Below, one piece after another: positions 4,213-36,515 of a DNA stretch of 40,000 nt. The translations under genes were made by a program, and so were the position numbers. The DNA comes from Desulfovibrio sp. OttesenSCG-928-I05 (GTDB lineage: Bacteria; Desulfobacterota; Desulfovibrionia; Desulfovibrionales; Desulfovibrionaceae), in contig JAJDHY010000001.1 of NCBI GenBank assembly GCA_030266385.1, positions 1 through 40,000 of the forward strand. Direction: 5' to 3'. The number at the start of each line of letters is the position of its first letter. The first letter of the stretch is position 1. The notes beneath the pieces are model-generated. The model had not been told where the DNA came from. It worked only from the letters and a program-made list of their open reading frames with translations, and searched no databases.

Positions 4213-4265
4213 TTTGAAAACACAACTCCTGACTTCCACGCGAGGCAACAACTACGCGGGGAAAT
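4213..4265 (+). promoter_or_regulatory. Conserved leader element, copy 1, upstream of traL
   Basis: The 21-mer CTGACTTCCACGCGAGGCAAC (4229-4249) is identical to 20586-20606, and TTTGAAA..AACT precedes it in both copies. CCACGCG (4236-4242) can pair with CGCGGGG (4255-4261), which covers the SD. Confidence 0.5.
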
Positions 4266-5004: not shown

Positions 5005-5496
5005 ATGACAGAAGCTATGCAGACTCCCGAAGTGCCGCAAAAAGCAGCTGCCGTGGAAACTCCCGCCCCCGCTGCCGCCGAAACCGAAAAAGAGCCGCTT
5101 TTGCCTGATGGCATTGGGCTGTCCATTGAAAGCGTCCGTGATCTACTGGTGAAAATCCATGACTGCAAGGTATCGCTGGACGATCCGGTGCTGATGGTCG
5201 TTACGATGCTGAACGCCTACCTGGGGGAAGTCCAGACACTTCAAAAGAGACATGAGGCGGGTCTGTCCCGGCTCATGACCGACAAAACCGATGACTACAT
5301 GAAGGGCGTCAAAGAAGCGGTCAAGGCGTTGCAGGAAGGCCTTTCCTCGGCTTCGGTGGAAGGCATCAAGGCGGTTTTCAACGAGCATGATTCCCGCCTG
5401 AAAGCCTTCAAGAGCAATCTTTCCTGGCTTGCGGCCATTACCGCGTGTTCCGCGATTATCAACGTCATTGCGTTCGTGCTGATGGGGGTGCGCTGA
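5005..5496 (+). CDS. TraM-like protein (assigned by position), coiled coil with a C-terminal TM helix
   Basis: ATG at 5005 follows GGGGGG. Its stop overlaps the trbB start (TGATG). C-terminal hydrophobic helix LAAITACSAIINVIAFVLMG. Confidence 0.5.
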   Translation: MTEAMQTPEVPQKAAAVETPAPAAAETEKEPLLPDGIGLSIESVRDLLVKIHDCKVSLDDPVLMVVTMLNAYLGEVQTLQKRHEAGLSRLMTDKTDDYMKGVKEAVKALQEGLSSASVEGIKAVFNEHDSRLKAFKSNLSWLAAITACSAIINVIAFVLMGVR

Positions 5497-6470
5497 TGAT
5501 TGCCGCGCACGAAGATACGCGCCTTCTGGACAATCTGCGCTTTGCCTGCGGGCCGCTGATGGTTGGCGCTCTGGAAGACGAAGGCATTATTGAAATCATG
5601 CTGAACCCGGATTCCTCGCTGTGGATCGAGCGATACGGGCAAGACCATGAACGGATAGGGGAAATTCCGCGAAAAGCGGCGGAATCCATCATGTATCTGG
5701 TGGCAAGCGCCCTCAAACTGACCGTCAACGAAAAGAGTCCCATTGTGGAAGGCGAGTTTCCCCTTGACGGTTCCCGGTTTGAAGGCACGTTTCCGCCCAT
5801 TGTCGGGCCTGGGCCGTCCTTCTCCCTGCGCAAAAAGGCGAGCCGGGTTTTTACCCTGGAAGAATACATGCTTGCCGGTTCCGTCACGGCGGAAGTCGTG
5901 CGCATCATTGAAGACGCGGTGCTGCGCCGCTTGAATATCGTTGTGGTCGGGGGCACATCCAGCGGCAAGACTACCTTCGTCAATGCGGTCATTGACGCGG
6001 TTTTCCGGCTTACGCCTTCGCATCGGCTGCTCATTCTGGAAGATACGGCGGAACTGCAATCCAAAAGCCCCAACTCCGTTTTCCTGCGCACCTCTGTTCT
6101 CGCGGAAGTGGACATGCGAAAGCTGGCGAAAGTCAGTATGCGCTATGCGCCCAAACGTATCCTTGTGGGGGAAGTGCGCGACGCTGCCGCCCTGGAAATG
6201 CTGAAACTCTGGAACACCGGGCATCCGGGGGGAATCTCCACATTTCACGCGGACAGTGCGGAAGAGGCGCTTCCACGCCTGGAAGAACTGGTCGAGGAAG
6301 CGGGGCTTGGCCCGAAGCAAAAGCTCATAGGCAGGGCTGTGGATTTGGCGGTCTACATGGAAAAGACGCCGGATAACCAGCGGCGCATATCGAGCATTGT
6401 GCGGGTCAACGGCTTCAACGCCAAAACGGAAAGCTACAATACCGACGTTCTCTACAGCGTCGCCGCATGA
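5496..6470 (+). CDS. trbB: TrbB/VirB11 secretion ATPase
   Basis: Walker A GGTSSGKTT and the GEVRD and GHPG motifs. The ATG overlaps the upstream stop. Confidence 0.95.
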   Translation: MIAAHEDTRLLDNLRFACGPLMVGALEDEGIIEIMLNPDSSLWIERYGQDHERIGEIPRKAAESIMYLVASALKLTVNEKSPIVEGEFPLDGSRFEGTFPPIVGPGPSFSLRKKASRVFTLEEYMLAGSVTAEVVRIIEDAVLRRLNIVVVGGTSSGKTTFVNAVIDAVFRLTPSHRLLILEDTAELQSKSPNSVFLRTSVLAEVDMRKLAKVSMRYAPKRILVGEVRDAAALEMLKLWNTGHPGGISTFHADSAEEALPRLEELVEEAGLGPKQKLIGRAVDLAVYMEKTPDNQRRISSIVRVNGFNAKTESYNTDVLYSVAA

Positions 6471-6482
6471 AGGCAGGAAAGT

Positions 6483-6701
6483 ATGACCAATATCAATAAC
6501 GCTCTGCCTGAAATTCGGTGCCCGCGCTGTAACAAACTGCTTGCAAAGGGGGTGCTTGACGTCGGGATTATAGAGTTTCAATGCCCTGGTGATAAGTGCC
6601 ACAAAAGAAAGATAATCCTGCGGGCCACGCGCCCCAATCTTGCGCCGCATGACGGCCTCTATGGAGACAGTCATGTACGCAAAACCCCTTCTCAATCGTA
6701 G
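6483..6701 (+). CDS. Mu Com-like zinc-ribbon protein
   Basis: IRCPRCNKLLAKG....IEFQCPGDKCHKRKII matches the Com pattern (C-x2-C-N-K-L-L ... IEI-x-CP-x2-C). The ORF ends 29 nt inside trbC. Confidence 0.75.
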   Translation: MTNINNALPEIRCPRCNKLLAKGVLDVGIIEFQCPGDKCHKRKIILRATRPNLAPHDGLYGDSHVRKTPSQS

Positions 6702-6735
6702 CAACCTTCGTACCCCCGGCCTGGCGCTGCTCGGC
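6617..6735 (+). repeat. Translation-initiation module, copy A (Com tail, SD, ATG, start of signal peptide)
   Basis: 6617-6675 is about 50 of 59 identical to 12806-12864. 6711-6735 is 23 of 25 identical to 12882-12906. Confidence 0.9.
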
Positions 6736-7023
6736 CTGATGGCGTTTGCGCTGTTTTTCCCTGAAATTGCCGCCGCTTCCGGGGGCATCACGGAATTTTC
6801 CAGCCCACTTGAAAAGGTGGTGAATACTGTTACCGGCCCTGCCGGTAAGTGGATTTCCATTGTGGCAATGGCGCTGTGCGGCATCATCTTTATCATGAAT
6901 AAAGATGATATTTCAGGCGGCTTCAAGCTCCTGCTCGGCGTCGTCTTCGGCATCAGCTTCATCGCTTTTGCCGGGAGTATCGTCAATAGCGTGTTTACCT
7001 TCTCCGGGGCGCTGGTGGGGTAA
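6673..7023 (+). CDS. trbC: TrbC/VirB2 pilin precursor
   Basis: SD GGAGA 5 nt upstream of the ATG at 6673, a signal peptide, two TM helices, and the expected position between trbB and trbD. Confidence 0.85.
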   Translation: MYAKPLLNRSNLRTPGLALLGLMAFALFFPEIAAASGGITEFSSPLEKVVNTVTGPAGKWISIVAMALCGIIFIMNKDDISGGFKLLLGVVFGISFIAFAGSIVNSVFTFSGALVG

Positions 7024-7316
7024 TGCGCACTATCCCGATCCATCAATCCCTGCACAGGCACAATCATGTCCTGGGGGCGGAAAGGGAACTGGTGCTGACG
7101 GCAGGGCTTATTGCCCTGCTGGTCGGCATCGGTGGCCTTACCCTCATTTCCATTGTGTCCGCTGCCGTCTTCTGGCTGTTCGCGGTCTTTGCCCTGCGGC
7201 GCATGGCAAAGGCTGATCCGCAAATGTCAAAGGTATGGTTGCGCCATATCAAACAACAGCTTTTTTACCCCTCAAAAACAGGCCGTTGGTGCGTGAACGG
7301 GGGTAAAAAATGCTGA
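7023..7316 (+). CDS. trbD: TrbD/VirB3
   Basis: 97 aa. The pattern GAERELV...GL plus a TM hairpin. TAATG overlap with trbC. Confidence 0.9.
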   Translation: MRTIPIHQSLHRHNHVLGAERELVLTAGLIALLVGIGGLTLISIVSAAVFWLFAVFALRRMAKADPQMSKVWLRHIKQQLFYPSKTGRWCVNGGKKC

Positions 7317-9715
7317 AACTCCATGATTTCCGCAGCAAGGCAAAGGGGCTTTCCGATCTCCTGCCCTATGCCGCGCTCATTGGCCCCGGCGTTATTCTGA
7401 ACAAGGACGGGAGCCTTACCGCCGCATGGGAAGTGCGCGGGCAAGATACTGCCTCGTCCACGCCCGATGAACTCGCATACATCAGCGCCCAGGTGAATCA
7501 GGCCGTGAAACTTCTTGGTACGGGGTGGGTCATGCACATGGATGCCGTGCGCGGTTCCAGCCAAGCCTACCCGGAAGCGCATAAAAGCGCCTTCCCTGAT
7601 CGCATCACGCAAATGATTGACGACGAAAGGCGGCGCTATTTCAGCCGTGACGAATGTTACGGCACGAATACCGTTCTGACAGTAACCTATAAACCTGACT
7701 TTGCTGAACAGCGCATTTCAGCCGGGGTGCATACCGGAAGCGGCATAGAAAAAGCCTTGCAACGCTTTGAAACGACGTTGCAGGAACTTGAAGACGCGCT
7801 TTCGGTTGTCCTGCGCATGAAGCGCCTGGAAGAATACGACGCCTATTATGATGATGGGGAAGCATACCGGCAATCCGATCTGCTTTCGCACATCCAGCAT
7901 TGCGTCAGCGGCAATCTTCACCCCATGCGCGTACCGGATACGCCCATGTACCTTGACGCGCTCCTGGGGAGTGAAGACCTGATCGGGGGCGTGGTTCCCA
8001 AGGTCGGCGGTCAATACGTAATGGTTTTGGGCATTGACGGCTTGCCGCAAGAGTCCTGGCCCGCGATCCTGGTCGAACTTGACAGCCTCCCGATTCAGTA
8101 CCGCTTTTCGACGCGGTTTATCTGCCTCGATCAATATGATGCCGTGAAGGAAATACGTTCGTATTGTAAGGGTTGGCGGCAACAGGTTTTCCGGGTCATT
8201 GACCAATTCCTGAATAACCCCAATGCACGGGCGAACCGTGACGCACTCTTGATGGCGGAAGACGCCGAAACGGCAATGACGGAAGTGCAAGGGGGCTATG
8301 TGGGCGCGGGGTATCTCACGTCCTGCATTGTTCTGCTGCATAACAATCTTGACGTTTTGCAAGATTGGGCGCGGGAGTTGCGCCGCTCAGTGCAAACGCT
8401 CGGCTTCGGCTGCCGGATTGAAAGCGTCAACGCGCTTGAAGCCTGGCTCGGCACACATCCGGGCAACACGTTTGCGAACGTGCGCCGCCCGCTGGTGAAC
8501 ACGCTCAATCTGGCGGATTTGCTGCCCCTGGCAAGCGTCTGGACGGGTGCGCCGGGTGCGCCGTGCCCATTCTACCCGCCCGATAGCCCGCCTTTGGCGG
8601 TCTGCACAACGGACGGGCAAACCCCGTTTTGGCTCAACCTTCATCATGGCGACATAGGCCACACGCTGATTTTCGGGCCTACGGGCGCGGGAAAAAGCAC
8701 CCTCCTTGCGGCGTTGGCCGCGCAGTTCCGGCGTTACCGGAACGCGCAAATATTCGCCTTTGACAAGGGCATGTCCATGTTCCCCTTGTGTCACGGCTCC
8801 GGGGGTACTCATTATAATATCGGGGAATCCTCCGACCTTTCGTTTGCTCCGCTGCAACGGATCAGCGAGTCGGAAGAAGAGTTTTCCTGGGCCGCTGAAT
8901 GGGTGGAAGCCCTGCTTGCATTGCAGGGAGTGACGGTCACACCGGCACACCGCAACGCGATTCATACGGCCCTGGACAGTCTGCGGGCCTCGCCGGAACA
9001 TATGCGGTCTTTGACTGACTTTGTTCACCGGCTGCAAGACATGGGCTTGAAAGAAGCCTTGCGCCATTACACCGAAGCCGGGGCAATGGGGCGGCTGCTC
9101 GATGCCCGGTCGGACAACCTGGGTGTATCCAGCTTCACCACCTTTGAAATTGAAGAACTGATGAACCTGGGGGAGAAAAACCTTATTCCGGTTCTGCTGT
9201 ACCTGTTCAGGCGCATTGAAAAGAGCCTGACCGGGCAACCGACGATCCTGATTCTGGACGAAGCCTGGATCATGCTCGGCCACCCGGTTTTCCGCTCCAA
9301 AATCCGCGAATGGCTGAAAGTCATGCGCAAGGCCAACTGCTGCGTGATTCTGGCGACGCAAAGCCTGTCGGACGCGAAAAATTCCGGCATTCTGGACGTT
9401 CTGACCGAATCCTGCCCCACAAAAATCTTTCTGGCGAACCTTGCGGCACGTCAGGAAGGGCAAGCGGCCCTCTACTACGATATGGGCCTGAATACCCGGC
9501 AAATAGACATCATTTCAAACGCCACTCCCAAGCGGGACTACTACGTTGTGACGCCTGTAGGCCGTCGCAAGATTCAACTCGCGCTTGGGGCTGTAACCCT
9601 GGCTTTTGTCGGTTCCTCCGACAAAGAGAGCATTGCCCGTATCAAAGAGCTTTCCGAAGTTCACGGCCCCGATGGCTGGCAAGATTACTGGCTGCGCGAA
9701 TGTCAGGCGATATGA
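7310..9715 (+). CDS. trbE: TrbE/VirB4 ATPase
   Basis: 801 aa. Walker A GPTGAGKST and Walker B ILILDEAW. Confidence 0.97.
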   Translation: MLKLHDFRSKAKGLSDLLPYAALIGPGVILNKDGSLTAAWEVRGQDTASSTPDELAYISAQVNQAVKLLGTGWVMHMDAVRGSSQAYPEAHKSAFPDRITQMIDDERRRYFSRDECYGTNTVLTVTYKPDFAEQRISAGVHTGSGIEKALQRFETTLQELEDALSVVLRMKRLEEYDAYYDDGEAYRQSDLLSHIQHCVSGNLHPMRVPDTPMYLDALLGSEDLIGGVVPKVGGQYVMVLGIDGLPQESWPAILVELDSLPIQYRFSTRFICLDQYDAVKEIRSYCKGWRQQVFRVIDQFLNNPNARANRDALLMAEDAETAMTEVQGGYVGAGYLTSCIVLLHNNLDVLQDWARELRRSVQTLGFGCRIESVNALEAWLGTHPGNTFANVRRPLVNTLNLADLLPLASVWTGAPGAPCPFYPPDSPPLAVCTTDGQTPFWLNLHHGDIGHTLIFGPTGAGKSTLLAALAAQFRRYRNAQIFAFDKGMSMFPLCHGSGGTHYNIGESSDLSFAPLQRISESEEEFSWAAEWVEALLALQGVTVTPAHRNAIHTALDSLRASPEHMRSLTDFVHRLQDMGLKEALRHYTEAGAMGRLLDARSDNLGVSSFTTFEIEELMNLGEKNLIPVLLYLFRRIEKSLTGQPTILILDEAWIMLGHPVFRSKIREWLKVMRKANCCVILATQSLSDAKNSGILDVLTESCPTKIFLANLAARQEGQAALYYDMGLNTRQIDIISNATPKRDYYVVTPVGRRKIQLALGAVTLAFVGSSDKESIARIKELSEVHGPDGWQDYWLRECQAI

Positions 9716-9725
9716 GGACACATAT

Positions 9726-10529
9726 ATGAAGAAAGTACTTTTCCTTTCCGCGCTGTTCGTAGTGCTGATGGTCGGGAATGCAAGCGCAGCCTCGTTCTTC
9801 TGTAAGAACTGCTCAACGAACCTTGTGCAACTTCTGGATAGGGTCACGAACATGGAACAGCTTTCAAGCCTGCTGAAACAGTATGATGAAGCTGTAACGC
9901 AAACCGCGCAACAAATAGAAATGGTGCGGCAGAATATCCAGCAATACGCCAATATGCTGCAAAACACGGCGCAACTCCCGGCAAACCTTGTCAACGAACT
10001 GAAAGGCCGGTTGACGCAACTTGCAAGCCTTACGGGGCAACTGAAAACACTACGTGGTGACGTGGTTTCGCTTGGATCTATCTTTACCCAACTGTACCCG
10101 GAAAGCGGCCTTTTTGGCGATATTGCCGGGGCCAGCCCGGAACAAATGGCGAAGGCGGCGGAAAAGTATCAGGCATCTTGGGATGCGTGGTCTGAAAACG
10201 TGGATCGGGCGTCACAAGCGGCTTTTCAACTCTCCGGTGCGCAACTGAACGAACTGCAACGGGACGCCTCCAAGTTCCAATCCTACCTGGACAATCTGCT
10301 GTCCACGCCTGACGGGCAAATGAAGGCAATTATGGCGGGCAACCAGCTTTCCGCGCTGCAAGTACAGGAAGCCCGCCAACTGCGGGAACTCATGGCAACG
10401 CAAGTGCAGAACTCCATCAGTTCACAAATGAAGCAGGAGAAAGAAAGCCAGATGGGGCAAGAAGCCTGGCGCGACGCTACGAAAGTAGACGGCCTCGGCG
10501 GGCTGAACTCCAAGGCCGATCCATTTTAG
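9726..10529 (+). CDS. trbJ: TrbJ/VirB5-like protein
   Basis: Signal peptide MKKVLFLSALFVVLMVGNASA, a coiled-coil body, and the expected position after trbE. Confidence 0.85.
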   Translation: MKKVLFLSALFVVLMVGNASAASFFCKNCSTNLVQLLDRVTNMEQLSSLLKQYDEAVTQTAQQIEMVRQNIQQYANMLQNTAQLPANLVNELKGRLTQLASLTGQLKTLRGDVVSLGSIFTQLYPESGLFGDIAGASPEQMAKAAEKYQASWDAWSENVDRASQAAFQLSGAQLNELQRDASKFQSYLDNLLSTPDGQMKAIMAGNQLSALQVQEARQLRELMATQVQNSISSQMKQEKESQMGQEAWRDATKVDGLGGLNSKADPF

Positions 10530-10531
10530 TC

Positions 10532-10927
10532 CTAGAACGGGTCAGCCTTGGACGTAAGCGGGTCTTGTTCCGGTTGTGAGGGGGCGGAGAGAATATTTCT
10601 TACTTCGTCCTGGGTTGTGCGGACAAAGGTTTTCGTTCCGAAAATATGATTTGTGAATTGCGCCCAATTCGCGTCGTGAAGCACCGCTACCAGAATGGGG
10701 TCTTTCTCTCCCGTCCTTCTCACAACGTAACGGTTTTTATCCTCTTCAATCGTGATAGCAGCGGAGTTTTCGCCTATGGATATATTGTCTTCACTTATTA
10801 CGACGGTGCGTAGTTTGCCGGTTAAAGAATCGGTTTCCGTGCTTTTCCATGCGCCTGTCACATCAGCGGCCATAGCTGAAAAGGGGAACGCGAACAGCGC
10901 AACCAAAAGCAATGCGGTTTTCTTCAT
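10532..10927 (-). CDS. Secreted protein of unknown function in the trbK position, opposite strand
   Basis: Sec signal peptide MKKTALLLVALFAFPFSAMA. GC is visibly lower than the flanking trb genes. Ends in LTSKADPF. Convergent with trbJ, with a 2-nt gap. Confidence 0.6.
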   Translation of the reverse strand: MKKTALLLVALFAFPFSAMAADVTGAWKSTETDSLTGKLRTVVISEDNISIGENSAAITIEEDKNRYVVRRTGEKDPILVAVLHDANWAQFTNHIFGTKTFVRTTQDEVRNILSAPSQPEQDPLTSKADPF

Positions 10928-10946
10928 CGGACTGATTACCCTTTGT

Positions 10947-12047
10947 GTGTTGGTGGTTTCGTTGTTGAATCCCACAACGGCCTTTGCCGCTGCCGACGCG
11001 GATTTTGTATCAACTTTGGTCAAGGAGTTCTACACTAAAACTTCGGCCTGGGAGCCGGTTCTGCGCAAGTATGCGGTACTGGTTTTTCAATGGCTCGTTA
11101 CCCTGGAAGTCTGTTTCTTGGGCATAAAAGCTGCCCTGAACCGCGATCAGATCGCGGACATATTCAAGCAGTTCGTTATGCTTTTACTGGCGGCGGGCTT
11201 TTTTCTGGCGGTTATCAACAACTATCAGGAATGGTCGTGGAATCTGATTAACGGCCTGAAAGGCATAGGCCTGCAACTCAATTCCTCGCAAATCTCTTCG
11301 GATGGCCCTTTTCTGGCGGGTATGAAGCTGGTGAAGCTGATTCTCTCCAAGCTCTCCGTGTGGTCGCCGGGCAATTCCATTGCCTTGTTGGTGGCGGCGC
11401 TCGTTATCATCGTCTGTTTCGCCCTGATTTCCGCGCAAGTGGTCTTAATCAAGTGCGAAGCCATGATTGCCATGATGGCCGCGCTTATTCTGGTGGGATT
11501 CGGCGGGTCTGCCTTCTTTCGGGACTATGCGATAAACGCGCTTCGCTATGTTCTCTCCGTTGCCTTCAAGCTCTTTGTCATGCAGTTGGTTTTGTCGGTC
11601 GGCATACAGTTCATTGAATCCTTCAATACTGCGGCGGCTGAACTGCAAGACATTTTCGTGATTATCGGCGCGTCCGTCGTCCTTCTGGCCCTGGTCAAAT
11701 CGCTCCCCGATGTTGTTTCCGGCATTATTCACGGCTCCCACGTCAACGGGGGCAATCTCCTGGGCGCTGCCGCTGCTGTGGGCGGCACGGCCCTGGCCGC
11801 TGGCGCTCTAGCTGTCGGCGGTGCGCAAAACATTCAGAACGTCAAAGACGCCTCAAAGATTGCGAACACCGAAGGCAAAAGCGGATTCGGCAAACTCGCC
11901 AGTATGGCCGGTTCCATGATGGGGGCGCGGCGTGACGCGAAAAGCGGCGGGGAACGGTCGCTAACCTCCCGCACACGCTCGGAAATGCAGGAAAGGGTTC
12001 ACAAGGCGACGATGGCGGCAAACCCTCAAAACAAAGGTAGTGAATAA
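10947..12047 (+). CDS. trbL: TrbL/VirB6 (start uncertain)
   Basis: Multi-TM protein with a Gly/Ala-rich C-terminus. Similarity to RP4 TrbL begins near AAADADFV. No ATG lies between 10776 and the mature region, so the candidate starts are GTG 10947, TTG 10950 and GTG 10953. Confidence 0.85.
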   Translation: MLVVSLLNPTTAFAAADADFVSTLVKEFYTKTSAWEPVLRKYAVLVFQWLVTLEVCFLGIKAALNRDQIADIFKQFVMLLLAAGFFLAVINNYQEWSWNLINGLKGIGLQLNSSQISSDGPFLAGMKLVKLILSKLSVWSPGNSIALLVAALVIIVCFALISAQVVLIKCEAMIAMMAALILVGFGGSAFFRDYAINALRYVLSVAFKLFVMQLVLSVGIQFIESFNTAAAELQDIFVIIGASVVLLALVKSLPDVVSGIIHGSHVNGGNLLGAAAAVGGTALAAGALAVGGAQNIQNVKDASKIANTEGKSGFGKLASMAGSMMGARRDAKSGGERSLTSRTRSEMQERVHKATMAANPQNKGSE

Positions 12048-12778
12048 TGGGTTGGTTCAAGAAAGAAGCCGCTCCCAGGCCCGCAAAGGATTCCGGGAGA
12101 AATCCCTACTTTGACGGGCGGCAGGAATGGCTTGAACGATACGGCTCCTATATCAGCCGAGCTAACCAGTGGCGCATTTTCAGCGTCCTTGCGGTGCTGG
12201 CCCTGCTTGTTTCCCTGTCCTGCAACTATGTGCAGTCCTCCCAGGTCAAGGCGGTTCCTTACATCATTGAAGTGGATCAGCTTGGCAAAATCGGCGCGGT
12301 GGCAAGGGCGGACTCCGCCAGTTCGACGCCTCGGCGGCTCATTCAGGCAGAAATTGCACAGTGTATCAGCTCATGGCGGACGGTCACAGCGGACGTGGAA
12401 CTGCAACAAAAAATGATCGACCGGCTTTCATATTTCATGGCGGGTGCAGCAAAGGGCGTTATGCGCGAGTGGTACGAAACGAACAATCCCTATGAAATTG
12501 CCAAGTCCGGCAAGCTGGTACACGTTGAAATCAAGGGGCTTCCCCTGCCTGTCAGCGGCGATTCCTACCGGGTGGAATGGACGGAAACGGTCAGAAGCCA
12601 CGCCGGTATCGTCCTTGACTCCAACCAGTTTGAGGCCACGGTGACGATCCAGATCCAGCCGCCGACGCAGGATGTGGTGATTCTGCGTAACCCCGGCGGC
12701 ATCTACCTGACCGCCATAAGCGCCGGAAAGGTCATTGGCTCCACCGCTCCGAAACTGCCCGAACCGCAAGGGCAATAG
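12047..12778 (+). CDS. trbF: TrbF/VirB8
   Basis: NPYFDGRQEWLERYG motif plus a single TM helix. Confidence 0.9.
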   Translation: MGWFKKEAAPRPAKDSGRNPYFDGRQEWLERYGSYISRANQWRIFSVLAVLALLVSLSCNYVQSSQVKAVPYIIEVDQLGKIGAVARADSASSTPRRLIQAEIAQCISSWRTVTADVELQQKMIDRLSYFMAGAAKGVMREWYETNNPYEIAKSGKLVHVEIKGLPLPVSGDSYRVEWTETVRSHAGIVLDSNQFEATVTIQIQPPTQDVVILRNPGGIYLTAISAGKVIGSTAPKLPEPQGQ

Positions 12779-12787
12779 GACAGTATA

Positions 12788-12916
12788 ATGAAAAACCGCT
12801 TCCTGCTGCGGGCCTCGCGCCCCAACACCGCGCCGCATGACGGCCTCTTTGGAGATTTGTCATGCTGCAGAAAACCCATTGCCCCGGCCTGGCGCTGCTT
12901 GGCCTCGTATTCTTAA
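12788..12916 (+). other. 42-codon ORF that keeps only the Com-like tail (no zinc ribbon)
   Basis: MKNRFLLRASRPNTAPHDGLFGD... compared with Com-like ...RKIILRATRPNLAPHDGLYGD. It overlaps the trbG start in the same way that 6483-6701 overlaps trbC. Confidence 0.3.
12806..12906 (+). repeat. Translation-initiation module, copy B (upstream of and into trbG)
   Basis: See copy A. It includes SD GGAGA, the ATG at 12862 and the signal-peptide segment PGLALLGL. Confidence 0.9.
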
Positions 12917-13815
12917 CCGCTTTTCTGTTTTTGGGCGTGGGCCCGGCGCAAGCCGCCGCCACGCCTCCGGGGTATCCTCCCGCGCTGCCCGAATCGGCAA
13001 ACAAGCCGGTGGCGACGCCTCCCCTTGATTTTATCAGCCCTGACGCGGTTGAACTGACCGACAAAGAGCGCAAAGCCCTGCAACTTTCCGAGGATTGGGC
13101 GCGGCGCAATATCGATCCGGTTCTCACGCCTGGGGGAAAAATCATCTATGTCCACGGCGCGACAATGCCTAGCGTCGTCGCCTCTCCTTTCCAGATTTGC
13201 GATGTGGAACTGGAACAAGGTGAAACCGTCCGTGATATTTTTGTGGGCGATACGGCCCGCTGGCAGGTTGATTCCGGTTCTTCCGGCTCCGGGGCGTCGT
13301 TGGCCGTGCATGTGTTTATCAAGCCGCTGGATGCCGGTTTGGAAACGAACTGCGCCATTACAACGGATCGCCGGGTCTATCATCTGCGCTTTATCTCCAA
13401 GCGCAAGGGCCACACGCCTTATGTGGGCTTTGCATACAACGATTCCATAAAACAACGCCAAGCCTGGCGGACGGAACAGAAAGCCAAGTCCGAACATTGG
13501 CAGTCAACGGAAATTGATGGCGAACGGGCGGATTTGTCGGCGCTGAACTTCAATTACGCGGTTTCGGGCAAGCCGAAATGGAAGCCGGAACGGGTCTATG
13601 ACGACGGCAGACAGATTTTCATTCGTCTGCCCGAATCCGCCAAATCAACGGAAATGCCGGTGTTGCTCGTCCGCAAGGGCGGCAAAGATGTGATTGTCAA
13701 TTACCGGGTCAAGGACAAGGCAATCATTGTTGACGGCATTTTTGACCATATAGCCCTGATTCTCGGCGTCGGCGGCGATCAGGAAAAAGTGGAAATCAAG
13801 AGGGGGAACAAGTAA
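12862..13815 (+). CDS. trbG: TrbG/VirB9
   Basis: 317 aa with a signal peptide, a VirB9-like body, and the expected position. Confidence 0.93.
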   Translation: MLQKTHCPGLALLGLVFLTAFLFLGVGPAQAAATPPGYPPALPESANKPVATPPLDFISPDAVELTDKERKALQLSEDWARRNIDPVLTPGGKIIYVHGATMPSVVASPFQICDVELEQGETVRDIFVGDTARWQVDSGSSGSGASLAVHVFIKPLDAGLETNCAITTDRRVYHLRFISKRKGHTPYVGFAYNDSIKQRQAWRTEQKAKSEHWQSTEIDGERADLSALNFNYAVSGKPKWKPERVYDDGRQIFIRLPESAKSTEMPVLLVRKGGKDVIVNYRVKDKAIIVDGIFDHIALILGVGGDQEKVEIKRGNK

Positions 13816-14351
13816 TGCGTAGCCTCCTTCTTCCTCTTCTGCTGTTTGCTGTGCTGTTTGCTTCCGGTTGCGCGGGCAAGGGCTTTCATGGCTCCTATTA
13901 CGGCGAAGTGCCGCAAAATGCCGCGCCGTCCATGATTGCCGCCGATGCGGCGGGTTATGTTGTCGGCCTGTACCCTCCTGGACATACGAAGCTTCAAATA
14001 CTGAATGCCGAAAAGGCGGATAATGCCTTTGCCATCGCCTTTGAAAACGGCTTGCGTGGTGAAGGCTTCACAATCCTGTCCGCAACGGGCGTTCCGGCTG
14101 ATGCCGACGGGTGCGTTGCGGTCGCCTATACCCTGGATGTTCTGGAAAAGGACGCCGCCTACTATCTGCAACTGCGGTTCAGCGACGGCAAAGCCGTTTC
14201 CAGGGCGTATTCCGCAAGCGGACAGCCGGAAGCGGGCCGAAGCGCCACGCCGCATGATTTCAAGCGTCCTCTCCTTAAACGGGTGGAAGAGAAAGCGCGC
14301 CGCGCCTACTCGTCTACTGTGGATAAGTTCGGGGGCGACAATGACAGATAA
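13815..14351 (+). CDS. trbH: TrbH lipoprotein (VirB7-like role)
   Basis: Lipobox LFASGC after a signal peptide. Lies between trbG and trbI. Confidence 0.8.
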   Translation: MRSLLLPLLLFAVLFASGCAGKGFHGSYYGEVPQNAAPSMIAADAAGYVVGLYPPGHTKLQILNAEKADNAFAIAFENGLRGEGFTILSATGVPADADGCVAVAYTLDVLEKDAAYYLQLRFSDGKAVSRAYSASGQPEAGRSATPHDFKRPLLKRVEEKARRAYSSTVDKFGGDNDR

Positions 14352-15573
14352 ATCCCCTGACAGTCTGATCATGCCCGCTGAAAAGCGCATTACCGCCTTC
14401 AAGCTCTCCCGCTGGCCTTTGTATGCCGTGCTGCTCGGCGCGGGCCTCCTGATCGCCGTCCTGGTCTACAGCGTCAACTTTGCGCACAACGAAGAAGACG
14501 ACGGCAAAACGACAAAGCCCGTAGACATTACAGAACAGGAAAAACCGCTTCTCATGGGCGAAGGCCGGGGGCTGAATTTGCTGCCTCCTTCCAATACGGC
14601 GATTGTCCAGCCCGATTTGCCCGTTCCGGCTGCGAACAAGAAAGAGCCGTTGATCATTGTTCAGCCGTCGGGCGAACACTCGGAACAATATCGGCAAGAG
14701 CTTGAAAACTTACGGCGCATGAAGGCGCAAGCGCAGTTGGAAGCCCTTTCCGCGCCTATCGGCGCGAAAAAAGGCGAAGCTGCCGCAAGCCAGAACCTTG
14801 CGGAGCGCCCGGACGGCGTTGCTGGTCGGGGCGCTGCTCCCGGTTCCTCTTCCGTCACGCTGCCGGTGCAACCGAGTGAAAACTACGATCCTGCTGCGGC
14901 AAAGGACAAAGAAGGTTTCTTTGGCCGGGCCGGTGCTGACGGCTCTTGGATTTCCCCGCATGTACGGACACAAGGGCAACCATATGAACTGAAAACCGGG
15001 GCTGTGGTTCCCGCCGCTCTGGTGACGGGCATAAACAGCGAATTGCCGGGAAGCATTACCGCACAAGTAACGCAAAACGTCTACGATACAGCCTGGGGGC
15101 GGCATCTGCTCATTCCCCAAGGCTCAAAACTCGTAGGGGCTTACGATTCCCGCGTGGTTTACGGGCAATCCAGGGTGCTTGTGGCCTGGAACCGGATCAT
15201 TTTCCCCGATGGCTCGTCAATCACCCTTGAGGCCATGCCTGGGGCCGATCAGAGCGGCTATGCCGGATATAACGACAAGGTAAACAACCACTATCTGCGG
15301 ATCTTCGGCTCGGCCTTCCTTATGTCGCTGATCTCCGGGGGCATGTCCTATGCTGTCGATAGCTTGGATGCGTCCGGCGGAGACAGTGATACGCCCTCAA
15401 TGCAGCAAGAAATGGGTACGGCCCTGGCTTCACAGCTTGGGCAAGCCTCCCTGCGCCTTCTGGAAAAAAATATTTCCATTGCGCCCACTCTGGAAATTCG
15501 CCCTGGTTACGCTTTTAACGTGGTCATCACCAAAGACCTCGTTTTTGAGCGGCCCTTTAAGGCATGGCGTTAG
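14341..15573 (+). CDS. trbI: TrbI/VirB10
   Basis: Start at MTDKSPD (14341), overlapping trbH by 11 nt. TM helix, Pro-rich linker, conserved C-terminal VirB10 domain. Confidence 0.93.
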   Translation: MTDKSPDSLIMPAEKRITAFKLSRWPLYAVLLGAGLLIAVLVYSVNFAHNEEDDGKTTKPVDITEQEKPLLMGEGRGLNLLPPSNTAIVQPDLPVPAANKKEPLIIVQPSGEHSEQYRQELENLRRMKAQAQLEALSAPIGAKKGEAAASQNLAERPDGVAGRGAAPGSSSVTLPVQPSENYDPAAAKDKEGFFGRAGADGSWISPHVRTQGQPYELKTGAVVPAALVTGINSELPGSITAQVTQNVYDTAWGRHLLIPQGSKLVGAYDSRVVYGQSRVLVAWNRIIFPDGSSITLEAMPGADQSGYAGYNDKVNNHYLRIFGSAFLMSLISGGMSYAVDSLDASGGDSDTPSMQQEMGTALASQLGQASLRLLEKNISIAPTLEIRPGYAFNVVITKDLVFERPFKAWR

Positions 15574-15581
15574 GGGGTCGT

Positions 15582-17636
15582 ATGACTGACACAATTCAGC
15601 AATACGGCCTGGGCGGCGGTGCCGGGGTTTCGGAAAGGAAACCGCGCTGGTGGTATGCGGCGTTGCTGGTCGGCCTGTCCGTCTTTTCTATGGGGCTGGC
15701 GACGCAACGGGTAGCGGCCTATTTTGACTTCCATCAGGCATTGGGCAAGCCCCTGGCGGCAGGCCTCTATGCTCCGTGGGCAATCTTCGGCTGGCAAGCC
15801 CGCTTTCTGGCTCAAGATACTTATGGCTTCATGGAAACGGCGATAACGCACAGCCAAGCCCTCTTTCTGGTTCCGCAATTCCTGATTATCGGCACATGGC
15901 TTTTCTGCATGAAAAGCCTACACGGCAATGAGCAGCTTCACGGTTCGGCGCGGTGGGCCACGGAGCCGGAAATCCGGCTCATGGGCTACTTTGAGGGGGC
16001 CGGGGTTTACATTGGCGGCTATATGCGAAAACTCGCCGGGGCCGCGCTTCTGCGGGCTTCTCTTTTGGGGAAGCCCAAAGAAAGGCAAATGTACTTGCGG
16101 CACAATGGGCCGGAACATCTGCTTGTGTTCGCGCCGACACGAAGCGGCAAGGGCGTGGGGTTGATTCTGCCGACGCTCCTTGCCTGGGAAGGCTCGGCCC
16201 TGGTGCTGGACATCAAGGGTGAGAACTGGGCTTTGACTGCCGGATTCCGGCGCTCGATGGGACAAAAGGTGCTGCGCTTTGACCCTTCGGACTCGTCCGG
16301 GGCATCGGCCTGTTTCAACCCCCTGGAAGAAATACGCCTTGATTCCCTCTTGGCTATTCCTGATGCGCAAAATATCGCCTCAATGCTGGTAGACCCCGAA
16401 GGCAAAGGGCTTGACGATCACTGGTCAAAAGCCGGTTTCGCCATGCTTGGCGGCTCTCTCCTGCATTGCTGCATTATGACGATGGCGAAAGAGAAGCGGG
16501 CGGCAACGCTCTATGACCTTTCGTGCATGTTGGCGGACGAAAACCGCACCATTGAAGAGTTGTTCAATGAAATGGTTGCGGCTCCCCATGCGGCACTGCT
16601 GCAAGAGATATTCCCGCAAAGCGATACTACGGAATACGGCGCGAAAGCCCATACCTTCATTGCGTCGTCGGCGCGGGAGATGTTGAACAAAGCCGAAAAC
16701 GAGGCAAGCGGCGTCATAAGCACGGTTCTGGTCAATCTGGCCCTGTACCGCGATCCGGTGGTAGCCCTGAATACGTCCAGGTGCGATTTCAGGATTCACG
16801 ACCTGATGAACCATGACGCGCCGGTAAACCTGTATCTGGTCATATCCCCCGCCGACATTGATCGGGTGCGGCCTCTGATCCGCCTGATGGTGGACATGAT
16901 TGTGCGCCGCACCTGCGCGAAAATGGAGTTTGCGGACGGTTCCAGCGTCAAGTCATACAAGCACAGGCTTTTGCTGCTGCTCGACGAGTTTACGAGCCTC
17001 GGCAAGCTCCCGATCATGGAAAAGGCTCTTGCGTATATCGCTGGCTACGGCGGCAAGGTCTATATCATCGTTCAGGACATTACCCAACTCAACGGCGTCT
17101 ACGGACGGGAAAACGCCCTGATGGCAAACTGCCATATCAGGCTGGCTTATGCGCCGAACACCGTAGACACTGCGAATACCCTGTCGGAAATGACCGGCAA
17201 AACAACGGTTGTAGACAAGAAGGTATCGCTTTCCGGCTCCCGGTCGGGGCACATGAAAAACGCTTCTGTCAGCATCAATGAAACTGCGCGGCCCTTACTG
17301 ACGCCTGACGAATGTATGCGCCTTCCTGGGCCGGTCAAAGACGGCCTGGGCCGGGTGGTAAAGCCGGGTGACATGCTCATTTTCACCGCTGGCAAGCCGC
17401 CCATTTACGGAAGGCAGATATTGTACTTCCTCGATCCGGTCTTCTCGGCACGGTCAAAAATCCGCGCTCCGGGTCTGACTACGGAATATCCAAGCGGGGT
17501 TTCCGATTCCCTGCATTTCACGATGCCGGTGATCCGTCAGGCTACGGCAAGCCAGACTGCCGCGCCCGTGGGCGGCATGGCGGCTGATCCGGCTCCCGAA
17601 AAACAAGAAGGCGGCTCTTATGAATACTTTCAATAA
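15582..17636 (+). CDS. traG: TraG/VirD4 type IV coupling protein
   Basis: Two N-terminal TM helices, Walker A APTRSGKGVG and Walker B LLLLDEF. ATG at 15582 follows GGGGG. Confidence 0.95.
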   Translation: MTDTIQQYGLGGGAGVSERKPRWWYAALLVGLSVFSMGLATQRVAAYFDFHQALGKPLAAGLYAPWAIFGWQARFLAQDTYGFMETAITHSQALFLVPQFLIIGTWLFCMKSLHGNEQLHGSARWATEPEIRLMGYFEGAGVYIGGYMRKLAGAALLRASLLGKPKERQMYLRHNGPEHLLVFAPTRSGKGVGLILPTLLAWEGSALVLDIKGENWALTAGFRRSMGQKVLRFDPSDSSGASACFNPLEEIRLDSLLAIPDAQNIASMLVDPEGKGLDDHWSKAGFAMLGGSLLHCCIMTMAKEKRAATLYDLSCMLADENRTIEELFNEMVAAPHAALLQEIFPQSDTTEYGAKAHTFIASSAREMLNKAENEASGVISTVLVNLALYRDPVVALNTSRCDFRIHDLMNHDAPVNLYLVISPADIDRVRPLIRLMVDMIVRRTCAKMEFADGSSVKSYKHRLLLLLDEFTSLGKLPIMEKALAYIAGYGGKVYIIVQDITQLNGVYGRENALMANCHIRLAYAPNTVDTANTLSEMTGKTTVVDKKVSLSGSRSGHMKNASVSINETARPLLTPDECMRLPGPVKDGLGRVVKPGDMLIFTAGKPPIYGRQILYFLDPVFSARSKIRAPGLTTEYPSGVSDSLHFTMPVIRQATASQTAAPVGGMAADPAPEKQEGGSYEYFQ

Positions 17637-20567: not shown

Positions 20568-20628
20568 TTTGAAACGGGAAAACTACTGACTTCCACGCGA
20601 GGCAACCGCAAAATAAGGAAGTCAGGCC
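20568..20628 (+). promoter_or_regulatory. Conserved leader element, copy 2, with an SD-sequestering hairpin upstream of the topoisomerase gene
   Basis: CTGACTTCC (20586-20594) is the exact complement of GGAAGTCAG (20617-20625), which overlaps SD AAGGAAG. The ATG is at 20629. Confidence 0.5.
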
Positions 20629-27793: not shown

Positions 27794-28952
27794 GGCTGTT
27801 TGCCCCGCCTTCACCGTGCCCCCCCATTTGCGGGCCTGGCTCCTTTTCCCTGTCGGGCCAGATATGTTGCCGGAAGTGCTGTCTAAGTCGGACTGCTGCC
27901 GGAATGGCAATGCGGTTGTCAGGCCCAAGTATTTCTTGGCGGGCGTCAGGGGTCAGGCTGGCGATCCAGGCGTCCGCTTCGGCTTCACGGCGAGCCTCAT
28001 AGGCTTTCTTCTCCCGGCGCGTGGTCGCTTCGCGGTCACGCTCGGCCTGTTCTGCGGGGGATATGTAGGCTGCGGGGCGGGGGTAATATCCTTGTGTCGC
28101 AAGGATTTTGAATACCCAATTCAGCGGAGTTGAAACGGGTTCGCCCTTGTGGGTGGTCATGCACTCGCGGGCAAGCTCCCATTCCGCATAGGTCAAGCCC
28201 TGCATGATATGCTCAAGCGTTTCACCTACCTGGGCGCGGCGTTGCATGATTTGCCGAATCTGAACCGTGCCGAAACCGACGCGGGCCAGTTCGGGCCAGT
28301 GAAAGGCTATGTCCTCTTCGGAAAGGGATTCCAGAAGTGCGCTATACCTTTTTGAATTTTCAGAAGAGATAGAAAGAATATTTCTATCTATCTTTTCTCT
28401 TAGAATAGAGGGGGCAAAATCGGCGTCAGGGTGGACGCCGGGGTGGACGGCAGGGTGGACGGGTGCGCAAAGGCATGGCCCTGCCGCTCTGATGTGGGGG
28501 CAAAGCATTTCTTGAATGAGGGTGAAGGTAACGCCCTGGCTGGTGCCTACCTTGGCCTGTTTGCGGCGTAAATAGCCGCGATTCACAAGACGCTCGACAC
28601 TTCGGCGGACGGCTCCGGGGGATCGTATCATTGAGTACACTCGCTCCAATTCGGCGGACAGTTGCTTGTACGGGGTCACGGTTGGCCCGATGGCAAGCAA
28701 CAGCCCGATAATGTTGATTTGTGCGGCTGAAAGCCCTTTGCGGCATGAAATACGGTTGATGTCGTCGGGGATTTCAGGATGGACGCCGGGGTGGACGTCA
28801 GGGCGGACGGGGGGCAGGGTGGACGCCAGGGCGCACGTCAGGTCGCACGCTAGGGTGGACGGGTGGACGTCAGGCTGGACGCCAGAATGGACGCCAGGGT
28901 GGACGCCCGCATGAGAGCCGCCAGGGGCGGTAATCATGCTTGCCGCGCTCAC
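27783..28952 (-). CDS. Winged-helix DNA-binding protein, Rep-like, with VHPG-type repeats
   Basis: The GTG start overlaps the alpA stop (GTGA). MarR-like wHTH (YKQLSAELERVYSMIRSPGAVRRSVERLVNRGYL). Repeats V-H-P-G flank it. Confidence 0.7.
   Translation of the reverse strand: MSAASMITAPGGSHAGVHPGVHSGVQPDVHPSTLACDLTCALASTLPPVRPDVHPGVHPEIPDDINRISCRKGLSAAQINIIGLLLAIGPTVTPYKQLSAELERVYSMIRSPGAVRRSVERLVNRGYLRRKQAKVGTSQGVTFTLIQEMLCPHIRAAGPCLCAPVHPAVHPGVHPDADFAPSILREKIDRNILSISSENSKRYSALLESLSEEDIAFHWPELARVGFGTVQIRQIMQRRAQVGETLEHIMQGLTYAEWELARECMTTHKGEPVSTPLNWVFKILATQGYYPRPAAYISPAEQAERDREATTRREKKAYEARREAEADAWIASLTPDARQEILGPDNRIAIPAAVRLRQHFRQHIWPDREKEPGPQMGGHGEGGANSHEQ
28426..28466. repeat. 12-nt repeat cluster 1 inside the Rep-like CDS (3 units, GGTGGACG core)
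   Basis: GGTGGACG at 28430, 28442 and 28454. Confidence 0.85.
28776..28912. repeat. 12-nt repeat cluster 2 inside the Rep-like CDS (about 12 units)
   Basis: Minus-sense units are GTCCACCC and variants. The spacing is 12 nt except for one 8-nt and one 16-nt unit. Confidence 0.85.
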
Positions 28953-29350: not shown

Positions 29351-29663
29351 GAAAAATGAACGGTCAGCATGGGTACACATTGATCGTTATTTTTCGTTGG
29401 TATGATTCACTATTGTGGGCTTACCCCGTTCTTTCCTGGGTACACTTGGGGCTATCCGGCCTTCTGTTCCTGGGTACACTTGGGTACACCCTGGTTCCGG
29501 CTTGAGGCGGCCTGACTGCTGCGGGCTTCGGAACCAAAAAAGAACGGTCAACGTGGGTACACATTAACCGTTCTTTTTTGTTGCTATTGCTAGGTTTTGT
29601 GAGACTTAGGCTTGCCTTCCTGGGTACGCTTTGGGCTATGCGGCCTTCGATGCCTGGGTACAC
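29351..29663 (+). repeat. Two tandem ~184-bp modules carrying seven TGGGTACAC sites
   Basis: TGGGTACRC at 29370, 29437, 29471, 29481, 29554, 29621 and 29655. Each module starts with an A-run/T-run-flanked hairpin that has the motif in its loop. Confidence 0.85.
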
Positions 29664-31006
29664 TCCGAGGTAAAGTCTGGCAGGGTCAAAGCCCTGATCT
29701 GCTCGGTTTGGTTTTCCCGGCTGGCGGTAGCCTTCAAATTGTCCAAATAATCCGCGTAATCTTGCATCATTTCAGTGCGAGAAGGCAAAAACTCAGCCTT
29801 GTCGTATGTCGCCTTTGCGGATTCTTTTTCAATCGTATGGGACATTTGCTTGTAGATTACGTCCGAACTGTACTCAAACTTTTCTTTGCAGTTGGTAACG
29901 AAGGCATGACGCCAGCCATGTCCGCACATTTCGCCCTTGTAGCCGATACGGGCAAATACCTTATTCATGGCCTCAATGGTGATATGGCCTGTCTGCGCAA
30001 GCTGCGAATGGAAAATATACTTATTCCCGCCAGTGTAACCGTGCAGTTCTTTCAAAAGGCTGACGGCTTGCTTTGAAAGCGGCACGATGAAGTCTTTCCC
30101 GTTCTTCATCCTCTCGCCGGGGATTAGCCATTGGCTTGCGGCCCAATCTATTTCGCTCCATTCACCCTCTACCATGTGAGAGGGGCGCAAAAAAACGTAA
30201 GGCAAAATTTTGGCTGCATAGCAGACTTCAATGCTTCTGCGGCTCTTGGGTTTATCCACTGAACCTTGGGCGTATTGGTCAATATGCAGTAAAAGATGCC
30301 CGATTTTTTCGGGATCGGTAATGCTCGGAAGGCTGTTGTTCTTGGAAGGCTTGGTGAAATTCAAGCCCTTCCAGATCGCATAGGCCGGGTTATGTTCGCA
30401 CTTACCCAAAGCAACGCCAAAGTTGAAAATGCTGACTGTCTTTTCGGCAACCTTCTTTAAGGTCGTGTATTTGCCCGCGTCTTCAAGCCCTTGAAACAAA
30501 GGGCGTATATGCTCCTGCGCCTTCACGTCCTTGATAAGAAGGTGCCCTAACGGCTGGATCAGGTGTTTCCTGATCCGCTTGGCTTCGGCAATAAACGTCT
30601 TCTTTTTCCACTTTTTTTGCACGTCGGAAAGCCAATCTTCGGCTATGGCCCCCAGGCTGTCCGGGTGGCTCTCGCCCCTGGCGATACGCCTTTCTTCGGT
30701 GAAAACGGCAAGCTGTTCTTCGTGCTTGGCCTTTCGTGCCTTGGCGGGGTTTTCACCTCTGTCTAGCTGCTGCCGCAACTCAAAGTTGGCTTCCCGCGCT
30801 TCTTTCAGGCTCATAAATGGAAAATTGCCAAGAGTCAGGTTTTGTTCCTTCCCCATATAAAAGTATCGTGCCCGCCAGATTTTATTTTGGCTGGTGACGA
30901 AAAGCATAAGCCCATTGCCGTCGGACAGTTTGACAGGGGTTAGTTTGCCGGTTTTTGTGTTCAGTTTGGGCTTTGCCGCCTCAATTCCTTTGATAGTCAA
31001 CGCCAT
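29636..31006 (-). CDS. int: Tyrosine integrase, P4-like (N-terminal arm-binding domain)
   Basis: 456 aa. N-terminus MALTIKGIEAAKP...LSDGNGLMLFV. C-terminal catalytic HGWRHAF and a downstream Tyr. Adjacent to the tRNA. Confidence 0.95.
   Translation of the reverse strand: MALTIKGIEAAKPKLNTKTGKLTPVKLSDGNGLMLFVTSQNKIWRARYFYMGKEQNLTLGNFPFMSLKEAREANFELRQQLDRGENPAKARKAKHEEQLAVFTEERRIARGESHPDSLGAIAEDWLSDVQKKWKKKTFIAEAKRIRKHLIQPLGHLLIKDVKAQEHIRPLFQGLEDAGKYTTLKKVAEKTVSIFNFGVALGKCEHNPAYAIWKGLNFTKPSKNNSLPSITDPEKIGHLLLHIDQYAQGSVDKPKSRRSIEVCYAAKILPYVFLRPSHMVEGEWSEIDWAASQWLIPGERMKNGKDFIVPLSKQAVSLLKELHGYTGGNKYIFHSQLAQTGHITIEAMNKVFARIGYKGEMCGHGWRHAFVTNCKEKFEYSSDVIYKQMSHTIEKESAKATYDKAEFLPSRTEMMQDYADYLDNLKATASRENQTEQIRALTLPDFTSECTQASKAA

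Positions 31007-31199: not shown

Positions 31200-31206
<7 letters not shown>
31171..31206. repeat. attR-type direct repeat (tRNA-proximal ICE end)
   Basis: CATACC agg GCGTACCCTGACTT gaaaac TGGCGGA. The TGGCGGA is the complement of the tRNA 3' end TCCGCCA. Confidence 0.7.
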
Positions 31207-31276
<70 letters not shown>

Positions 31277-36306: not shown

Positions 36307-36515
36307 GAAGGCTCCGTAGGGCATGGCCCGGCAATGGGTGGATACGATAAAGAGGGAGTTTCCAACCAGATGCGCTTCTTGTCAAGCGAGAGGCGCAGGA
36401 AGGATGGGAGAGAAAGAATAGCCCCGGCAAACAGGCGTTCATTTCCCCTCTGTTCTTTGGTGCATTTTTTGCTTAAACAGTACACTATACACTATTTTGA
36501 CATATGGGGAACACC

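Follow-up and report, generated by a model that had tools for sequence, protein, structure and literature searches.

The closest described system is the com-mom pair of bacteriophage Mu, in which the zinc-ribbon protein Com, an RNA-binding translational activator, binds a short hairpin (GAAUGCCUGCGAGCAUCC) beside the TIS, the hairpin in which the mom start is enclosed (PMC6483171). At its 3' end com (35768-35956) overlaps the start of mom (35907-36602) by 50 nt, the mom ribosome-binding site (35896-35899) lies within com, and the hairpin follows the CPRC motif of the protein by about seven codons. Mu Com has a disordered C-terminal segment, which it does not need to bind RNA (PMC6483171). Com-like genes also lie upstream of DNA adenine methyltransferases in Mu-like prophages (FluMu hin1523, Pnme1 and hia5; PMC3299994); in these systems the Com homologue sits directly upstream of a target other than mom, with proposed Com-binding sites at the 5' end of that target. 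A further precedent is the generic start-occluding coupling hairpin, in which the start is buried and would be opened by an upstream ribosome. A literature search for Com-like proteins tied to T4SS or ICEs returned nothing relevant.

The locus described here lies in a window (the whole stretch of DNA that was analyzed) of 40,000 nt from Desulfovibrio sp. OttesenSCG-928-I05 (contig JAJDHY010000001.1, positions 1 to 40,000). Four features are in common with Mu: a small zinc-ribbon gene, a hairpin in the 3' tail of that gene, a predicted start-occluding hairpin, and an overlapping downstream gene, trbC, with an overlap of 29 nt. The short hairpin (HP1) falls within about one codon of the position that the Mu hairpin occupies, some 6-7 codons behind the second knuckle in each system. 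Unlike Mu, however, the targets are conjugation genes rather than a DNA-modification gene, and the hosts are ICEs of Desulfovibrio-like gut bacteria rather than phage. The leader that carries the hairpins is present in two to three copies per element, has been moved among genes by lineage and occurs detached from com; whereas the prophage methyltransferase systems are single com-target pairs, it forms a multi-gene set in a T4SS/transfer module. The start codon pairs with an upstream CAUGAC that may instead sit in a local hairpin, which makes the switch architecture explicit.

Profile matches to gene families identified a P-type (Trb) type IV secretion operon in the window (Table 1). Matches above cut-off were obtained for the TrbC/VirB2 pilin (59.6 bits) and for TrbG (TrbG_Ti, TIGR02775; 230.5 bits), together with matches to TrbB (TrbB_P, TIGR02782; 359 bits) and TraG (PRK13880; 660 bits), and the VirB3, VirB8, CagX and TrbI Pfam families were detected in the operon. 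Downstream of traG lie genes for an S26 peptidase, ArdC, a topoisomerase, a relaxase and an integrase, as well as tRNA-Asp. The core Trb genes, the traG coupling protein, a relaxase and an integrase adjoining a tRNA gene are thus all in place and, since the integrase and tRNA-Asp lie downstream of the transfer genes, the element is an ICE integrated beside a tRNA gene. The integrase/tRNA-Asp junction is likely its boundary.

Several further features of the window were recorded. GC content is low (0.43-0.46) in the first 4 kb, which contain a 586-aa ORF without a Pfam match, and goes from ∼0.53 to ∼0.6 past the integrase/tRNA-Asp junction. Arrays of 12-nt iteron-like repeats (GGTGGACGNCAG/GGGTGGACG), in two clusters ∼350 nt apart, occupy 28398-28909 between the relaxase and integrase regions and overlap a minus-strand 389-aa ORF without a Pfam match; they could be binding sites of the regulator, oriT or replication type. 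At the 3' end of the integrase gene there is a 129-nt direct repeat (29352-29480 and 29536-29664), the two copies being 76% identical and 184 nt apart.

Table 1. Features of the window bearing on the repeated leader (positions in nt of the window).
Feature	Position	Strand	Remarks
trbB	5445-6470		operon gene order
Com-like zinc-ribbon gene	6483-6701	+	72 aa; between trbB and trbC; overlaps trbC by 29 nt
Leader copy A	6612-6690	+	nhmmer E 9e-20; in 3' tail of Com-like gene
Copy A, HP1	6619-6636
Copy A, TIS	6642-6680
Copy A, HP2'	6644-6656
Copy A, SD GGAG	6663-6666
Copy A, trbC AUG	6673-6675
trbC	6673-7023	+	VirB2-type pilin; first target gene; codons 14-22 are the second repeat block
trbD			between trbC and trbE
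trbE	7310-9715		operon gene order
trbJ-like ORF			between trbE and trbL
trbL	10752-12047
trbF	12047-12778
42-codon upstream ORF	12788-12916	+	runs through leader copy B; stops 52 nt into trbG
Leader copy B	12800-12879	+	nhmmer E 1.4e-16
Copy B, HP1	12807-12824
Copy B, TIS	12830-12868
Copy B, HP2'	12832-12844
Copy B, SD GGAG	12851-12854
Copy B, trbG AUG	12862-12864
trbG	12862-13815	+	VirB9 family; second target gene; N-terminal signal-peptide region 12881-12907
trbH			between trbG and trbI
trbI	14005-15573
traG	15564-17636		after trbI
Tyrosine integrase gene	29636-31006	-	directly adjoins tRNA-Asp
tRNA-Asp	31200-31276	-

A repeat search of the window paired 6618-6667 with 12806-12855 (44 of 50 positions identical), and in a 40-kb sequence of the same composition ∼1e-11 ungapped 50-mers with at least 44 matches would be expected by chance. 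The sequence-only reading of this DNA had put the repeat at 6617-6675 and 12806-12864, with about 50 of 59 positions identical; the degree of identity stands, but copy A begins at 6618 and the gapped alignment gives 50 of 58 with one 1-nt indel. The same reading had noted a second shared block behind both copies, which was recovered as 27 nt (6713-6739 and 12881-12907, 23 of 27 identical), and both translations contain the PGLALLGL that it assigned to TrbC and TrbG; its other peptide statements were borne out too. From block to block the distance is 20 nt shorter in copy B (start-to-start spacing 6188 versus 6168). A search of the window with nhmmer returned these two leader copies only, and Rfam 15 at gathering score gave no match at either, its sole match in the window being the tRNA at 31203-31276. 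The translation of the 42-codon ORF through copy B is MKNRFLLRASRPNTAPHDGLFGDLSCCRKPIAPAWRCLASYS; it contains no CxxC motif, which agrees with the earlier claim that the zinc ribbon is missing, and it has no Pfam or NCBIfam match. An AGGA lies 7 nt upstream of its ATG. This ORF is a decayed copy of the com 3' end.

The protein encoded between trbB and trbC ends in ...LRATRPNLAPHDGLYGDSHVRKTPSQS and has CPRC as its first knuckle and an atypical CPGDKC (Cx4C) as its second. Against PF10122 (Zn_ribbon_Com) it scored 15.6 bits (E 0.011), below the 22.9-bit cut-off, because its second knuckle is Cx4C; four of five relatives tested (∼50-60% identity) scored 33.5-40.4 bits, and Mu Com itself 36.8. 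A profile of 12 Com-like proteins with the window protein as its first row was compared by hhalign with Mu Com, whose sequence had been checked against AF083977, and gave a probability of 97.3% and E 1.6e-11, with 53% identity over 34 columns. By these comparisons the Com-like protein is homologous to Mu Com over the zinc-ribbon core, the homology of the window protein itself being drawn from its relatives and from the profile-profile match. In an AF2 model (4-sequence alignment, mean pLDDT 66.5), residues 10-47 form beta strands with block-mean pLDDT of 74-84, and the tail from about residue 50 falls below pLDDT 50; it is predicted to be disordered, as the tail of Mu Com is. Searching the PDB with this model in Foldseek produced no match at E 0.001 or better, and a PDB sequence search with the Com-like profile returned weak zinc-finger matches (E at least 0.019) and no Com entry.

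Database relatives of the Com-like protein are few, and all lie between trbB and trbC; a genome scan found six more loci with the trbB-com-trbC layout, in Desulfovibrio isolates and MAGs. Megablast of 5400-14400 against the plasmid collection returned one unrelated 227-nt match only, and tblastn of the Com-like protein found no match there and one insignificant match (E 0.6) in the phage collection. The CPGDKC knuckle spans residues 34-39 (window 6585-6602); most relatives have CPRC, with CxxC twice, and the 92%-identical P0001 has CPGGKC. In two loci the whole com-plus-leader module is tandemly duplicated (L100 2271-3559 and L137 11307-12595), the first com copy being followed by a 37-aa pilin-like stub and the second, ∼1.2 kb downstream, by a full trbC.

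A pattern from the leader core (GCCCC-N6-GCGCCGC-NN-GACGGCCTC) was scanned against viral and metagenome contigs. At least 120 stretches of metagenome contigs matched (human gut, termite gut and other samples), and there were no matches in the viral contigs; the element is therefore not phage-borne in the collections searched. Across all loci, those from the pattern matches listed included, nhmmer found 140 leader copies, and the relatives of the window element hold more than 150 in total. Among the matches listed, the downstream gene was TrbC in 72 cases, TraG in 43, a topoisomerase in 8, and a Dam-like gene and TrbG (the window) in one each. All of the 72 trbC copies lie inside the tail of a zinc-ribbon ORF except on two frameshifted contigs. 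Complete copies are all on the coding strand, each ending in the SD and ATG of a gene, and they follow the consensus CUGCGGGC-N5-GCCCC-N6-GCGCCGC-AU-GACGGCCUC-N3-6-GGAG-N3-4-GUCAUG.

An nhmmer profile of the repeat placed a leader before trbC in all of the first-found Com-like loci; in five of these (L007-L011) an additional leader lies in the trbI-traG spacer, outside zinc-ribbon ORFs, and none was found by nhmmer before trbG. A second set of loci was collected by way of TrbG protein homology, without use of the leader sequence. Four samples in the 90% TrbG cluster of the window (L152-L155) have the leader before trbC and trbG, as in the window, and L146 (TrbG 82% identical) has it before trbG. 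Loci at TrbG identities of 77-85% (L142-L145) carry it before trbC and trbF, and two at 69-71% (L147 and L148) before trbC, traG and a topoisomerase gene. A leader precedes trbC in every relative and trbG in five other samples (L146 and L152-L155), and the repeat is accordingly no private duplication of the window. The sequence-only reading, that two T4SS genes share one cassette, holds for the window, but most relatives have traG, trbF or a topoisomerase gene as the second target. With a second target that differs in this way, the leader is portable, having been joined to one transfer gene or another depending on the lineage.

Additional genes occur around some of these leaders. Small HicB/Arc-like cargo genes lie between trbI and the traG leader in L147 (12684-13280) and L148 (12698-13462), and around 2822 in L088 a small unannotated gene has been inserted, leaving a truncated 5' half of the leader behind; this suggests that the trbI-traG spacer is an insertion hot spot. 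The truncated copies at L088 2822 and L107 1139 look like remnants after cargo insertions. Dam-family (PF05869) methylase genes were seen inside transfer modules (L136 817-1429, L002 4435-4893 and L152 6662-7099). The one in L136 carries a Com-type leader, with a leader-bearing topoisomerase gene ∼500 nt later, and echoes the com-methyltransferase pairs of Mu-like prophages.

Copy B is a duplicate of the com 3' end and ∼25 codons of the trbC 5' end, placed between trbF and trbG. TrbG of leaderless relatives has a different N-terminus (MKKFIIVFAAALIF...); the duplication appears to have replaced the ancestral TrbG signal-peptide start with a TrbC-type one. The signal-peptide block was duplicated together with the leader and is kept in TrbG of L146 and L152-L155, the N-termini of leader-bearing relatives reading ML(Q/R)KTHC(P/S)GLALLGL or ...SGLALLGFALLG. 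L146 retains a decayed second Com knuckle (QCLCTFRSLLRA) in its trbG upstream ORF (uORF), and P0127 retains more of the trbC-like N-terminus. The window lineage later lost 20 nt between the two repeat blocks.

Eight copies folded with RNAfold share one structure, HP1 (UG.GGGC-loop-GCCC.CA) followed by a long hairpin (TIS), in which GCG..GCAUGAC pairs with GUCAUG..CGC, including the start codon, and CUC pairs with the GAG of the SD. A local hairpin, HP2' (GCCG-CAUGA-CGGC), is mutually exclusive with the TIS. Copy A has an MFE of -25.1 kcal/mol (z -2.17) with its AUG paired, and copy B one of -25.6 kcal/mol; the fold z-scores are modest (-1.0 to -3.0). RNAalifold on a 106-copy alignment returned HP1 and the local hairpin only, with covariation near zero, since the 5' arm is fixed by the search pattern.

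Covariation was therefore retested on an alignment (A4) of 27 copies found independently of the leader sequence. HP1 plus HP2' was 99.3% paired versus 29-59% in slid controls, with 5 pairs changed on both sides, a count reached in 0 of 500 shuffles; for HP1 plus TIS the corresponding values were 92.0% versus 25-51%, and 6 pairs (2 of 500 shuffles). The compensatory events are few and mostly confined to single sequences. In the trbF copy of L142, HP1 changes from GGGC/GCCC to GAAC/GUUC and the TIS from CAUGAC/GUCAUG to CACGAC/GUCGU, and HP2' changes from GCCG/CGGC to GCUG/CAGC (L030) or to GCCA/UGGC (L148 topoisomerase). Compensatory changes are thus carried by both alternative structures. A short hairpin with an adjacent start-sequestering hairpin, as in Mu, is present here as a predicted fold, alike in 8 copies and reflected in the pair counts of 27.

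Insertions of 6-11 nt are located exactly in the HP2' loop. Three insertion-bearing copies (before traG in L007 and L148, and before the topoisomerase in L147) lack the anti-start CAUGAC; start occlusion is therefore not universal. Across the 106 copies, GUC stands ahead of the AUG in 92-100, non-coding ones included, with 14 G.U variants. The AUG pairing probability was 0.73 in leader copies versus 0.50 in 78 other starts from the same loci (p = 0.003), and 1.00 in both window copies. An unusually paired SD was rejected (0.48 versus 0.60 in controls), and only start-codon occlusion is supported, SD occlusion is not.

The view that the nucleotide or RNA element is what is conserved gained from copies before traG, trbF and topoisomerase genes, which keep the bases without a zinc-ribbon ORF. 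Stops even occur in the Com frame, a TAA in a spacer copy (L033) and a TGA at the second codon of the L142 trbF copy, with the bases otherwise kept. Among 12 aligned com genes, none of them collected by the DNA pattern, the invariant tail residues (L, R, P, A, P, D, G, L, G) use one codon each, and the invariant zinc-ribbon residues two or three, with an identical-codon fraction mostly ∼0.4-0.7 (mean ∼0.6). Variable codons in the tail are confined to Ala72 and His80, both in predicted hairpin loops. In the tail of com, but not in its zinc ribbon, the synonymous sites are frozen, and the conservation of the tail peptide is best taken as a side effect of constraints on the RNA.

The loop of HP1 differs from what is known of Mu. 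The Mu Com SELEX motif, CC(N)2-3GAG in a hairpin loop (6-nt in Mu), is absent from HP1, whose loop is C(A/U)CGC or of the GUA type and varies between copies of one element. CCUGCGAG is restricted to the traG copy of L007, and in most copies CUGCGGG straddles the 5' side of the HP1 stem. CUGCG(G/A)G is similar to CUGCGA, the target loop of Mu Com, but this was kept as no more than a lead, as a 7-mer near-match could be chance.

We consider it probable that the repeat is a portable Com-responsive translation switch, a ∼65-nt leader serving a small regulon in the ICE. From homology, gene layout and co-occurrence we infer that the Com-like protein acts on the cassette, and with it the binding to the leader, the direction of the switch and the dependence on Com. 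The ∼65-nt leader would be a cis-acting RNA that provides the downstream gene with its SD and AUG and governs how accessible they are. In the default state the TIS would form, the AUG would be hidden and translation would be low. The Com-like protein, encoded between trbB and trbC, would bind the HP1/HP2' platform of each copy and favor the local hairpin HP2', exposing the AUG. The pilin and one or two further transfer genes would then be translated, the extra target in the window being trbG. Ribosomes crossing the leader through com or the 42-codon uORF may add cis coupling.

Such ribosomes might also suffice, the hairpin being opened solely by translation of an upstream ORF with no trans role of Com on the leader. 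We regard this as unlikely, even though com and the uORF are both read through the leader and the ORF through each window copy ends inside the target gene. The uORF start is common to the window and L152-L155, where the AGGA 7 nt upstream is kept and a 3-nt indel preserves the frame, and trbG of L146 also has a longer ATG-started uORF in the Com frame (...QCLCTFRSLLRAMRPG..., resembling the second Com knuckle). The traG, trbF and topoisomerase copies, however, have no consistent upstream start, several contain stops (the L033 TAA and L142 TGA), and the L008 leader begins 9 nt past the trbI stop in another frame. Unlike a generic coupling hairpin, the leader keeps a ∼65-nt sequence across unrelated genes, has an extra 5' hairpin and is frequently present without an upstream ORF, three features that simple coupling does not predict; the invariable attachment of a Com homologue to the trbC copy would likewise go unexplained. 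At the trbC and trbG copies, cis coupling may act alongside the proposed switch.

The other readings differ from the Com-responsive switch in what they take to be the functional molecule. That the inverted repeats are a DNA operator or internal promoter bound by a zinc-ribbon transcription regulator is a quite improbable reading. Inverted repeats are present, the profile matches its own reverse complement, and PF10122 proteins are often named 'DNA-binding transcriptional regulator' in databases. The complete copies, however, are without exception on the coding strand, keep a fixed distance and contain the SD and ATG, and many G.U-compatible stem changes keep RNA pairs rather than DNA symmetry. 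A site scan of the surroundings of copy B (12500-13000) gave no promoter-like or terminator-like site and no sigma-70-like hexamers, and the characterized homologue, Mu Com, is an RNA-binding translational activator (PMC6483171). A neutral recombination scar or selfish short repeat, with com-trbC junction duplicates carried without function, would fit the clear origin of copy B from the com 3' end and trbC 5' end, part of the signal peptide included, and the truncated remnants at L088 2822 and L107 1139. We hold it to be very unlikely, since the ∼65-nt core is kept in old copies with fully diverged flanks, where TrbG is only ∼60-70% identical, and since compensatory hairpin changes, frozen synonymous sites and the place of every complete copy at a gene start all go against it. 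Lastly, the conserved tail peptide of the Com-like proteins (LRAxRPNxAPHDGL) might be a functional motif and the 42-codon ORF a functional micropeptide. This is hardly credible given identical codons throughout the tail, the same bases where the ORF is missing or interrupted by stops, and the predicted disorder of the tail.

A second shared leader in the window, unrelated to the Com-tail leader, was seen at 4224-4249 and 20581-20606 (AACT(C/A)CTGACTTCCACGCGAGGCAAC, 25 of 26 identical), 17 nt before a parA-like ATG (4266) and 23 nt before the topoisomerase ATG (20629). In the topoisomerase copy CTGACTTCC exactly complements the SD-containing GGAAGTCAG (20617-20625), and for this reason it may form another RBS-occluding hairpin. 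This leader contains CCACGCGAG, loosely like the Mu Com motif CC(N)2-3GAG, and occurs before parA in L001 as well, but in none of the other loci that had been examined by then. The topoisomerase gene of relatives has the Com-tail leader in its place.

Control by Com and a TIS is known; the new elements here are conjugation-gene targets, multiplicity, portability and an explicit alternative-hairpin design. Until now Com was a peculiarity of phage Mu and related prophages, in which one protein serves one target. If the proposed switch is correct, the Com/TIS mechanism would extend to the T4SS and conjugation genes of ICEs, which gut metagenomes contain in abundance (at least 120 stretches), and the target RNA would be a module moved between genes, a natural and compact 'protein-gated RBS' part. 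It would further be a case of overlapping codes, with RNA structure freezing both the synonymous sites and the peptide of the regulator's tail. We give an even chance to the broader view that the leader serves as operator for a post-transcriptional Com regulon gating transfer in a large, undescribed ICE family of gut and termite gut, in which a ∼70-aa protein switches on the pilin and one or two more transfer genes, the operator has been copied repeatedly to new genes (trbF, trbG, traG, topoisomerase, methylase), and the RNA dictates the sequence of the Com tail. The switch model would provide a handle on the post-transcriptional control of horizontal gene transfer in Desulfovibrio-like bacteria.
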